Part shown: in pieces, positions 6,037 through 6,555 of the stretch
How the letters are laid out: each line of letters begins with the position of its first letter
How positions within the stretch are numbered: the stretch's first letter is position 1
Source of the DNA: a virus
Taxonomy: Duplodnaviria > Heunggongvirae > Uroviricota > Caudoviricetes
Direction: 5' to 3' (one strand)
Virus record (IMG/VR): IMGVR_UViG_2563366870_000004
Coordinates: 1-42,584 of that record
Length of the DNA stretch: 42,584 nt
Notes under the pieces: model-generated
What the model saw: only the letters and a program-made list of their open reading frames with translations
What the model was told of the DNA's origin: nothing
Databases searched by the model: none
Position numbers and translations under genes: made by a program

Positions 6037-6555
6037 ATGAGTGTGCCGCAAACAAAAGCTGAACTGCTTTTAGCTATTGATAAAAATTTTAGTAAATTAA
6101 TTAGTTACCTCAACACAATCCCACCAGAAATTACTTCAGATAAATCAATGGACGGACACGCCAAAGGAACGGAGATGAGTGTTCGTGATCTCGTTTCGTA
6201 TCTGCTTGGATGGAATGCTCTTGTTGTAAAGTGGATCGCTTCTGATGCTAAAGGTCTGCCTGTCGATTTTCCGGAAACTGGCTATAAATGGAATCAGCTT
6301 GGCCTTCTTGCTCAAAAATTTTACTCAGATTACAGTGAGTTAAGTTATGAGTTGTTAGTAGCTGAACTTCAGACTGTAAAAAATGAGATTGTGAACCTTA
6401 TTAATGATCGTACCGATGATATTTTGTATGGAAGACCATGGTACACAAAATGGACGATGGGGAGAATGATCTCATTTAACACATCTTCGCCTTACGCCAA
6501 CGCTAATGGAAGATTAAGAAAGTGGGCAAAAAATAATAATATCAGTTTAAAGTAA
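6037..6555 (+). CDS. ClbS/DfsB-like (DUF1706) protein, putative colibactin-type genotoxin resistance
   Basis: 172 aa; motifs GHAKGT, DLVSYLLGW, WYTKWTMGRMISFNTSSPYANANGRLRKW match my recollection of the ClbS family; GAGAGGG ribosome-binding site. Confidence 0.55.
   Translation: MSVPQTKAELLLAIDKNFSKLISYLNTIPPEITSDKSMDGHAKGTEMSVRDLVSYLLGWNALVVKWIASDAKGLPVDFPETGYKWNQLGLLAQKFYSDYSELSYELLVAELQTVKNEIVNLINDRTDDILYGRPWYTKWTMGRMISFNTSSPYANANGRLRKWAKNNNISLK

Follow-up and report, generated by a model that had tools for sequence, protein, structure and literature searches.

ISEc53, an insertion sequence with a ClbS-family cargo gene, probably homes to LexA boxes and in this window splits the predicted operator of a phiV10-like prophage

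Protection by ClbS-like proteins was described by Silpe et al. 2022 (PMC8907063), in which all 11 of the homologues tested, with 27-80% identity to ClbS, protected against colibactin and blocked prophage induction. The set included an E. coli protein of 172 amino acids (52% identity) and an E. albertii protein (57%). A 2025 honeybee study found more ClbS homologues to be likewise protective. In E. coli, a clbS-like gene with a single ISL3 transposase was reported on chromosomes, plasmids and prophages by Maklin et al. 2025 (bioRxiv 10.1101/2025.11.17.686825), where function was inferred from structural similarity only. Here we describe a clbS-like gene in a 42,584-nucleotide stretch of viral DNA (positions 1 to 42,584 of IMG/VR record IMGVR_UViG_2563366870_000004; hereafter the window), in which it is carried by ISEc53, an insertion sequence (IS) of the ISL3 family, within a phiV10-like prophage. 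Both the family and its protective role, as well as the association with a single ISL3 transposase, are already in the literature (PMC8907063; 10.1101/2025.11.17.686825). The idea of an IS-mobilised ClbS-like gene, put forward in a first-pass annotation of the window, had been anticipated, since this unit, in chromosomal, plasmid and prophage locations, is reported by both Silpe 2022 and Maklin et al. 2025.

An insertion of this kind was also recorded by Totsika et al. 2011 (PMC3203889), as an ISL3-like element in fimB (fimB::ISL3-like) of the sequence type 131 (ST131) strain EC958 and of Nissle 1917. The element measured 1,895 bp including repeats, had 23-bp imperfect inverted repeats and two coding sequences (an ISL3-like transposase and a 'conserved hypothetical protein'), and interrupted fimB in 59-71% of the ST131 isolates screened. 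LexA or SOS boxes are not mentioned in Silpe 2022, Maklin 2025 or Totsika 2011, nor is a target-site preference in the first two. Literature searches, which covered the literature only and not ISfinder, returned no report of an IS targeting LexA operators, and the LexA-box target specificity of ISEc53 and its relatives appears to be unreported. To our knowledge, no ISL3 member or other IS has been described as specific for the operator of a transcription factor.

We consider it probable that the ClbS-family gene is the cargo of an IS that homes to the centre of LexA boxes, and that the insertion here split the single strong operator of the prophage; this assessment covers the proposed steps as well as the observed ones. 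The first-pass annotation had missed this main feature, namely that the IS is predicted to home to LexA operators and that a split box beside an anti-repressor-type gene could change induction directly, apart from ClbS chemistry. The element and the two parts of the box were delimited as follows.

5938..7822, plus strand: ISEc53, ISL3-family IS of 1,885 bp with two genes (clbS-like and transposase), an identical unit being present at many unrelated loci.
5938..5960, plus strand: left terminal inverted repeat (GGGTCTTCCCCTGTTGTGGTGGG), from a repeat search and comparison with the right end.
5966..5971, plus strand: CATAAT, a -10-like hexamer about 30 nucleotides inside the left end, from left-end alignment; candidate IS promoter element.
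6037..6555, plus strand: clbS-like gene (DUF1706; ClbS/DfsB family), cargo gene of ISEc53; product WP_000115885.1, identical to PDB 5COF.
6574..7794, plus strand: ISL3-family DDE transposase of 406 amino acids with zinc-ribbon, helix-turn-helix (HTH) and DDE domains (Pfam and NCBIfam).
7800..7822, plus strand: right terminal inverted repeat (...CCCACCATGATCGGGGAAGACCC), from a repeat search and end comparison.
5924..5937, no strand assigned: left part of the split LexA box, TACTGT (5924-5929) and spacer ATAAACAT (5930-5937); junction read directly.
7823..7836, no strand assigned: right part of the split LexA box, second ATAAACAT (7823-7830) and ACAGTT (7831-7836); junction read directly.

The bounds at 5938 and 7822 were set by base-level comparison, with the ends GGGTCTTCCCC... 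and ...GGGGAAGACCC, and the 8-bp target-site duplication ATAAACAT was present on both sides. By megablast, phiV10-like phages matched the two flanks only and not the element, and the insertion site was present, empty and uninterrupted, in phiV10 and PAS61. Because the gene is enclosed by IS bounds with an 8-bp duplication, at a site that is empty in phiV10 and PAS61, it is read as cargo within an IS and not as a phage gene. Mobilisation of the gene by an IS, as the first-pass annotation had proposed, was thereby borne out. Its description of the gene as prophage-borne held in part: the gene does lie in a prophage, but only by being inside the inserted IS.

Megablast placed the ~1.9-kb unit with both genes in about 509 of 5,426 complete E. 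coli genomes, where it is annotated as 'ISEc53 family transposase + ClbS/DfsB'. The 1,885-bp unit was ~100% identical between loci. The transposase gene starts 18 nucleotides past the clbS-like stop codon, and its product matched NCBIfam transpos_ISL3 (E = 6e-98) and Pfam DDE_Tnp_ISL3, HTH_Tnp_ISL3 and Zn_ribbon_ISL3. In cargo-less close relatives of ISEc53, a left end of ~67 nucleotides is followed directly by the transposase gene. The -10-like hexamer (CATAAT, GATAAT or TATAAT) was conserved in the left ends across the IS subgroup (for example at L017, L065, L109 and L112; individual loci are given by L numbers) without a convincing -35 element, and may represent a weak native promoter overlapping the transposase binding site. 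The clbS-like and transposase genes would form one transcription unit, read from this weak left-end promoter, from a captured SOS promoter without its operator, or from both; in co-oriented insertions, the operator-less SOS promoter could read into the clbS-like gene. Duplications of 8 bp and occasional passenger genes are traits of the ISL3 family. A fully delimited 1,778-bp relative with the same terminus (L049) contained a gene for a BOF/YgiW-type OB-fold protein. Candidate cargo adjoined the ends at four further kinds of site: a GFA-family protein (L085), a GNAT acetyltransferase (L104), effector-type proteins of 700-850 amino acids with pentapeptide and SopA-like parts (L025, L044 and L096) and a FosA-like N-terminus (L017).

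The open reading frame at 6037-6555 (plus strand) is intact from ATG to stop and encodes 172 amino acids, with a ribosome-binding site, GAGGG, 8 nucleotides before the ATG. The assignment to the ClbS-like (DUF1706) family made in the first-pass annotation was confirmed by a profile match to Pfam PF08020 (E = 3e-54, 183.9 bits, against a cut-off of 24.2 bits) that was full-length, with residues 1-165 on profile positions 1-166 of 166. BLASTP gave 54% identity to ClbS over 166 residues (E = 8e-66). The expected catalytic tyrosine was also found, Tyr55 being aligned with Tyr55 of ClbS in a conserved LVSYL(I/L)GW motif (LVSYLLGW here, LVSYLIGW in ClbS); Tripathi et al. are said to have shown in 2017 that this is the catalytic residue of ClbS. 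The protein was 100% identical over 172 residues to chain 5COF_A, crystallised as an 'uncharacterized protein', and was assigned the four-helix-bundle fold because of this identity; its RefSeq name is 'four-helix bundle protein'. Besides 5COF, six solved DUF1706 structures were matched, namely ClbS itself (6ANR, E = 1e-55) and five weaker ones; the match to PDB 5CIV was at E = 8e-19. The G+C content of the clbS-like gene was 37.6% and that of the transposase gene 50.4%, a contrast that fits acquisition of the former from elsewhere. The gene lies outside any pks island, next to the ISL3 transposase and phage genes and with no clbQ or other clb gene nearby, and is an orphan ClbS-like gene, not ClbS itself. 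The protein was also compared with the E. albertii homologue in the set of Silpe et al., and the two were judged not to be the same, as the latter has another accession and 168 amino acids in place of 172; it was absent among the 15 listed members of the 90% cluster to which the clbS-like protein belongs.

The intact box in the relatives reads TACTGTGTATTTATACAGTT in phiV10 and TACTGTATAAATATACAGTT in PAS61. When the flanks in the window were joined and one copy of the duplication was removed, the rebuilt site, TACTGTATAAACATACAGTT, matched the E. coli LexA consensus TACTGTATATATATACAGTA at 17 of 20 positions and was by far the best LexA box in the window. A position weight matrix (PWM) was built from the 18 E. 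coli SOS boxes in Table 4 of Thomassen et al. 2010 (PMC3009722), and the rebuilt box scored 26.2 bits. The site is thus predicted to be a LexA box, the only good one of the prophage, split at its centre by ISEc53. In the window as it stands, the box scan left no good LexA box: none exceeded 24/33 except a GC-spaced intragenic CTGT-N8-ACAG at 28256 (25/33, 12/20 identities), and none lay inside the IS. The CTGT and ACAG belong to the target, since they are contiguous, as a single CTGT-N8-ACAG, in intact phages and since the N8 varies from one IS copy to the next while its left and right instances agree within each copy; the possibility that they are part of the IS was rejected. A LexA box rebuilt at the junction, which would make the clbS-like gene SOS-regulated, was also rejected, the left junction reading CTGT-N8-GGGT and the right ACCC-N8-ACAG. 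The duplication was ATAAACAT in the window and ATAAATAT in strain TUM13064, with both copies concordant in each, and these concordantly different alleles suggest two independent hits on the box of this phiV10-like phage. The junction in this prophage was found in one of the 5,426 complete E. coli genomes, and many related prophages keep the site empty.

To place this insertion among others, junctions were taken from exact-protein look-ups, a metagenome scan for the left end, a viral-contig scan and annotated phage records, the data being comparative sequence of natural isolates and metagenomes. The first three other sites inspected, in a second phiV10-like prophage, a lambdoid prophage and the dacD-sbmC spacer, all had the form CTGT-N8/IS/N8-ACAG. 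An exact CTGT at -12 to -9 was present in 79 of 95 distinct left flanks, and one mismatch to it in 11 more (binomial P ~ 1e-165 for the 79, with a measured background of 0.49% per position). The duplicated 8 nucleotides were 89% A+T, and the consensus of the 95 left flanks was TACTGTATATATAT followed directly by the IS. Perfect 8-bp duplications were seen in 18 of 25 distinct complete flank pairs; 13 of the 18 were exact CTGT...ACAG, four were near-variants (CTGG...TCAG at symE, CTGT...CCAG twice and CGGT...ACAG) and one was unrelated. With the same PWM, 16 of 17 rebuilt empty sites scored 13.4-29.4 bits, the published boxes scoring 13.2-28.2 and the 99.9th percentile of background 20-mers lying at 2.1. 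Some of the split sites were published boxes themselves: the sbmC/umuD box TACTGTATATAAAAACAGTA (PMC3009722 Table 4) was the exact sequence split at L004, L118 and L124, and the dinD box AACTGTATATAAATACAGTT (PMC3009722 Table 4) was split exactly at L082 and as a one-base variant at L011. The genes adjoining the insertions mostly belonged to the SOS regulon and included sbmC, umuDC, dinI, dinD, symE, plasmid impCAB and dinB, together with UmuD-type S24 and Qnr-type pentapeptide genes.

The remaining 7 of the 25 complete pairs joined flanks from two different sites, and 3 more mixed pairs were found in viral contigs. Elements with mixed flanks were seen at L029, L050, L092, L099, L065, L139, L144 and L169, for example with a left flank from an IS3-transposase site and a right flank from fimB. 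These are either products of recombination between IS copies (inversions or deletions) or assembly chimeras.

The phasing was shared by relatives. Passenger-less elements of 1,315-1,319 bp, whose transposases are ~85% identical, were inserted in LexA boxes with the same phasing, also in phage genomes, and so was an element of 1,532-1,540 bp with a transposase only ~45% identical. In Enterobacter phage BHUENT6, a 1,317-bp relative lies in a perfect AACTGTATATATATACAGTA box. Viral contigs yielded 27 distinct sites of the IS group, 25 with an exact CTGT, adjoining genes of PHROG 450 (p24-like), 3893, 2100, 1993 and 698 and genes for DinI, UmuD-like proteins and integrases. Judged from these sites, phage LexA boxes are habitual targets of the ISEc53 group.

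Several of the sites were noted for the genes beside them. Small phage proteins of 55-110 amino acids, encoded directly beside IS-hit LexA boxes, are candidate SOS-controlled anti-repressors or other damage-induced functions; PHROG 3893 was found at L136, L144, L150, L159 and L160, PHROG 2100 at L126, L153 and L101, PHROG 1993 at L138 and PHROG 698 at L169. At L133, L135 (n=7), L046 and L106, the IS had hit boxes found directly upstream of integrase genes (MAVRKL... type) of phages or islands, and one of them has the very sequence of the sbmC/umuD box, which suggests SOS-controlled integrases in elements of this type. At L053, a Qnr-type pentapeptide-repeat gene starts 20 nucleotides from the IS end at a CTGT-AAAAATGC site. 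Some qnr genes are under LexA control, and the insertion at L053 would alter quinolone-resistance regulation. When species-representative genomes were scanned for the IS end, the sole hit was a contig (L016, JAIJJM010000018.1) labelled 'Collinsella sp. MAG', which ends in the ISEc53 left end beside a CTGT-TTATGGAT site and a tyrosine recombinase gene and is probably a misbinned Enterobacteriaceae contig.

Two other explanations of the pattern were weighed against recognition of the sequence by the transposase. Under the first, insertion would be near-random and only those insertions that capture an SOS promoter or interrupt a dispensable operator would persist. It is in keeping with this that SOS genes are dispensable in unstressed cells, that intergenic insertions are better tolerated and that the junctions come from natural isolates and not from de novo events. 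Under selection of this kind, however, insertions anywhere between promoter and gene would do, with one orientation preferred, whereas the phase was exact to the base and the duplication coincided with the 8-bp spacer in 79 of the 95 distinct flanks. Both orientations were found overall and at one and the same box (at sbmC, at impC and in a lambdoid prophage), and the orientation bias expected from promoter capture was rejected. The passenger-less relatives, which have only a transposase to express, share the phasing, and off-target sites such as fimB keep a partial xTGx/(AT)n/xCAx pattern. We therefore regard selection after random insertion as highly improbable. Base-exact phasing, both orientations at the same box and the same phasing in passenger-less relatives argue for target recognition by the transposition machinery in these in-phase CTGT/ACAG insertions, and not for random insertion followed by selection.

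The machinery would most likely read the CTGT/(A+T)8/ACAG sequence itself through the transposase. The second alternative is that the transposase is recruited by operator-bound LexA, or by the distortion that LexA causes in the DNA, and not by sequence. The target consensus is indistinguishable from the LexA motif, flanking TA and A+T spacer included, and nearly all of the sites are genuine operators and not chance occurrences of CTGT-N8-ACAG, as guidance by LexA would predict. Since CTGT-(A/T)8-ACAG is so rare by chance, reading of the sequence alone predicts the same result, and with a LexA dimer bound, the spacer should be harder to reach. Among its Pfam and NCBIfam matches, the transposase had no evident LexA-interaction domain. 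The fimB site (ATGG...ACAC) and other partial sites, not expected to bind LexA, suggest an intrinsic sequence preference; among the off-target sites, the xTGx/(AT)n/xCAx pattern was retained at fimB and at CTCT-TTAAAAAT-CTAG, which is weak evidence for sequence reading by the transposase over guidance by LexA. There is precedent for guidance by a bound protein, as transposons of the Tn5053 type hunt resolvase-bound res sites, but for the IS studied here we consider it unlikely.

The prophage is of the phiV10/epsilon15-like type (Uetakevirus), integrated beside yfgI with yfgH/yfgI on the left and the integrase on the right; phage EC.W1-9 was 97% identical across 80% of the window at 8000-32900, and the gene content includes lysis, tailspike, Ant, recET and integrase genes.

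485-1558, no strand assigned: host genes yfgH and yfgI; host flank as in L002.
3659..5767, minus strand: prophage tailspike gene, left neighbour of the insertion site; N-terminus matches the phiV10 tail fibre, annotated 'tail fiber domain-containing protein' in L002.
7857..8114, plus strand: small phage gene, 85 amino acids, homologue of phiV10 p24; start codon according to the RefSeq and phiV10 annotations.
9256..9951, plus strand: Ant/Bro-N anti-repressor, 231 amino acids (PHROG anti-repressor Ant, E = 8e-57; Pfam Bro-N, E = 1.5e-19).
36669..37253, plus strand: candidate prophage repressor, 194 amino acids, with PHROG transcriptional regulator/repressor matches and Pfam HTH_3 only.
41334..42584, minus strand: prophage integrase, running off the window end (Pfam Arm-DNA-bind_3, Phage_int_M and Phage_integrase); far prophage end.

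In intact relatives, the LexA box lies ~10-20 nucleotides upstream of the 85-amino acid gene at 7857-8114 (phiV10 p24). The product of this gene matched phrog_450 (E = 3e-48) and, in its C-terminal part, the anti-repressor family phrog_1760 (E = 4e-7), and shared 40% identity (E = 8e-16) with the C-terminal domain (residues 150-227) of the Ant protein encoded in the same prophage. As the box sits so close to the gene, the promoter was probably parted from it, and the split operator would separate this small anti-repressor-type gene from its predicted LexA-controlled promoter. In the candidate repressor (36669-37253), Pfam found HTH_3 only and no Peptidase_S24. Given the split operator and a candidate repressor without a self-cleavage domain, loss or alteration of the normal DNA-damage (SOS) trigger of the prophage is probable, whatever the ClbS-like protein does.

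The small LexA-box gene and the Ant gene are separated by a minus-strand gene (8137-8865) that is not at that position in phiV10. It encodes a 242-amino acid protein of PHROG 6762 with an N-terminal hydrophobic segment and C-terminal cysteine-rich repeats, and with weak matches to Stc1, endonuclease VII and Lar-like proteins. A bidirectional terminator-like hairpin (8121-8138) follows this gene.

With regard to the function of the cargo, the clbS-like protein would, by homology, act as ClbS does, by cytoplasmic hydrolysis of the electrophilic cyclopropane warheads of colibactin. For a cell that is not itself a producer, the consequence would be less DNA damage, less RecA activation and less SOS-dependent prophage induction. 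As all of the ClbS-like proteins that Silpe et al. 2022 tested were protective, it is plausible that this one also protects from colibactin and from colibactin-triggered prophage induction. A different role, against other electrophilic or cyclopropane genotoxins, as a precursor of a sibling bacteriocin of the DfsB type, or none at all if the gene is inert cargo, was judged quite unlikely. It would accord with the family name, ClbS/DfsB (DfsB being a sibling bacteriocin of Paenibacillus dendritiformis; compare the match to PDB 5CIV), with the place of WP_000115885.1 outside the tested homologue set and with ClbS-like genes being found in many bacteria from niches without known colibactin producers (PMC8907063). 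DfsB, however, is only a distant relative, while the identity to ClbS is 54% (E = 8e-66) and all 11 tested homologues, down to 27% identity, were colibactin-protective; the near-complete identity (~100%) of the 1,885-bp unit across loci and the intact reading frame argue against decay.

The framing of the first-pass annotation was also weighed as a prophage adaptation, in which the gene would be kept, as a prophage 'moron', because preventing colibactin-triggered induction benefits lysogen and prophage alike, so that its position in a prophage is the point. The gene is indeed inside a prophage, the phage site was apparently hit twice independently, and ClbS-like proteins do block colibactin-triggered induction (PMC8907063). 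The distribution of the unit did not support the proposal. The prophage junction was present in one of 5,426 complete genomes, many related prophages having an empty site, and most copies were in fimB, on pUTI89-type plasmids or at chromosomal SOS genes, the same unit occurring at fimB, sbmC, dinD, symE, umuDC, impCAB and elsewhere. As the gene also lies within IS bounds with a target-site duplication, and the position is explained by the LexA box and not by the phage, we consider retention for the benefit of the prophage very unlikely.

Some of the results weigh against an IS that homes to LexA boxes, splits the prophage operator and carries a protective gene. A few insertions lie outside SOS boxes, at fimB (ATGG-ATATATAT-ACAC), L119 and L049; that at L119, between a DAO-family oxidoreductase gene and pspF, is a clean off-target ISEc53 insertion with a perfect 8-bp duplication, CGATAAGC, at a site unlike a LexA box (PWM score -31.5). 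By these sites, target specificity is strong and not absolute. Many metagenome contigs end inside the IS, so that only one flank is visible. WP_000115885.1 is listed in Supplementary Table 1 of Silpe et al. (PMC8907063; 53.6% identity) and was not in their tested set. A scan for the sigma-70 consensus gave no full site on the plus strand upstream of the clbS-like gene. On the side of the prophage, PHROG 450 is annotated as 'unknown function', and the full-length Ant gene (9256) is preceded by a terminator and a gene on the opposite strand and may be controlled separately. Between the transposase gene and the 85-amino acid gene, no plus-strand terminator was predicted, and the direction of any change in induction is uncertain, since read-through could lead to expression of the latter gene and not to its silencing.

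As a gene, the cargo is unremarkable and has been described before; what matters is its vehicle. If homing to LexA boxes is true, ISEc53 would be a clear example from nature of an IS directed at operators of a global stress regulon, by means of a compact DDE transposase with a 4+8+4-bp palindromic specificity. It would also give a mechanistic reason for the ease with which the clbS-like unit moves, since chromosomes, F-type plasmids and prophages all hold LexA boxes. Carriers would be predicted to have altered SOS wiring (sbmC, umuDC, dinD, dinI, symE and impCAB), and carrier prophages to be without a normal DNA-damage response; such altered SOS and prophage responses bear on colibactin ecology, on antibiotic-induced release of phage and toxin, and on mutagenesis. 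The copies in the fimB region (L006, L009, L010, L115, L117 and L121) would be seen in a new light, as the insertion in ST131 and Nissle would be re-read as an off-target hit by a colibactin-immunity transposon, and the widespread ST131 fimB insertion carries, on sequence grounds, a probable colibactin-immunity gene. More tentatively, and with a confidence that falls a little short of even, we propose that the ISL3 subgroup with the terminus GGGTCTTCCCC... is an unrecognised operator-homing class, which uses LexA boxes as landing pads, possibly senses LexA-bound DNA, and progressively releases promoters from SOS control and breaks phage triggers, with ISEc53 adding colibactin immunity. If so, one insertion could both detoxify a prophage-inducing genotoxin and disconnect the damage sensor of the prophage, and in one orientation the cargo would be placed behind an SOS promoter without its operator.

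Set beside the described systems, the clbS-like protein shares with ClbS (PDB 6ANR) the DUF1706 family, the length class, 54% identity and the Tyr55 motif; it differs in being encoded by a gene that is carried by an IS, outside a pks island and with a G+C content of 37.6%, and its role as a hydrolase is drawn from homology. It is of the same family as the proteins of Silpe et al., of which E. albertii WP_000115842 and E. coli 69 QDM73539 were tested and WP_000115885.1 was not. The unit is almost certainly the clbS-like and ISL3 unit of Maklin et al., by their description. It is the same element as the fimB insertion of Totsika et al., L010 being the EC958 chromosome; the fimB copy, in contrast, lies at a non-SOS site (ATGG-ATATATAT-ACAC) inside fimB, and its protein was not recognised as ClbS-like in 2011. 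With the ISL3 family at large, ISEc53 shares the zinc-ribbon, HTH and DDE_Tnp_ISL3 domains, the terminal inverted repeats and the 8-bp duplication.

On the side of the prophage, the nearest counterparts are the modules of coliphage 186 (Tum), the Gifsy prophages and N15 (AntC), in which DNA damage is sensed via a LexA-controlled anti-repressor. The arrangement here is alike in having a predicted LexA box just upstream of an anti-repressor-related small gene and a candidate repressor without a self-cleavage domain; it differs in that the module is physically split by an IS and in that the 85-amino acid protein is only a putative anti-repressor. On the side of the IS, elements with strict targets include Tn7 (attTn7), the 'res hunters' Tn5053/Tn402, IS1111-attC/IS4321 (integron attC sites and transposon ends) and IS1397/ISKpn1 (repetitive extragenic palindromic, or REP, palindromes). 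ISEc53 resembles them in using a short, structured and often palindromic site that recurs on chromosomes and mobile DNA and offers safe, repeated landing pads. Unlike them, it lands in operators that belong to a global stress regulon, and each insertion would free one promoter from LexA control.

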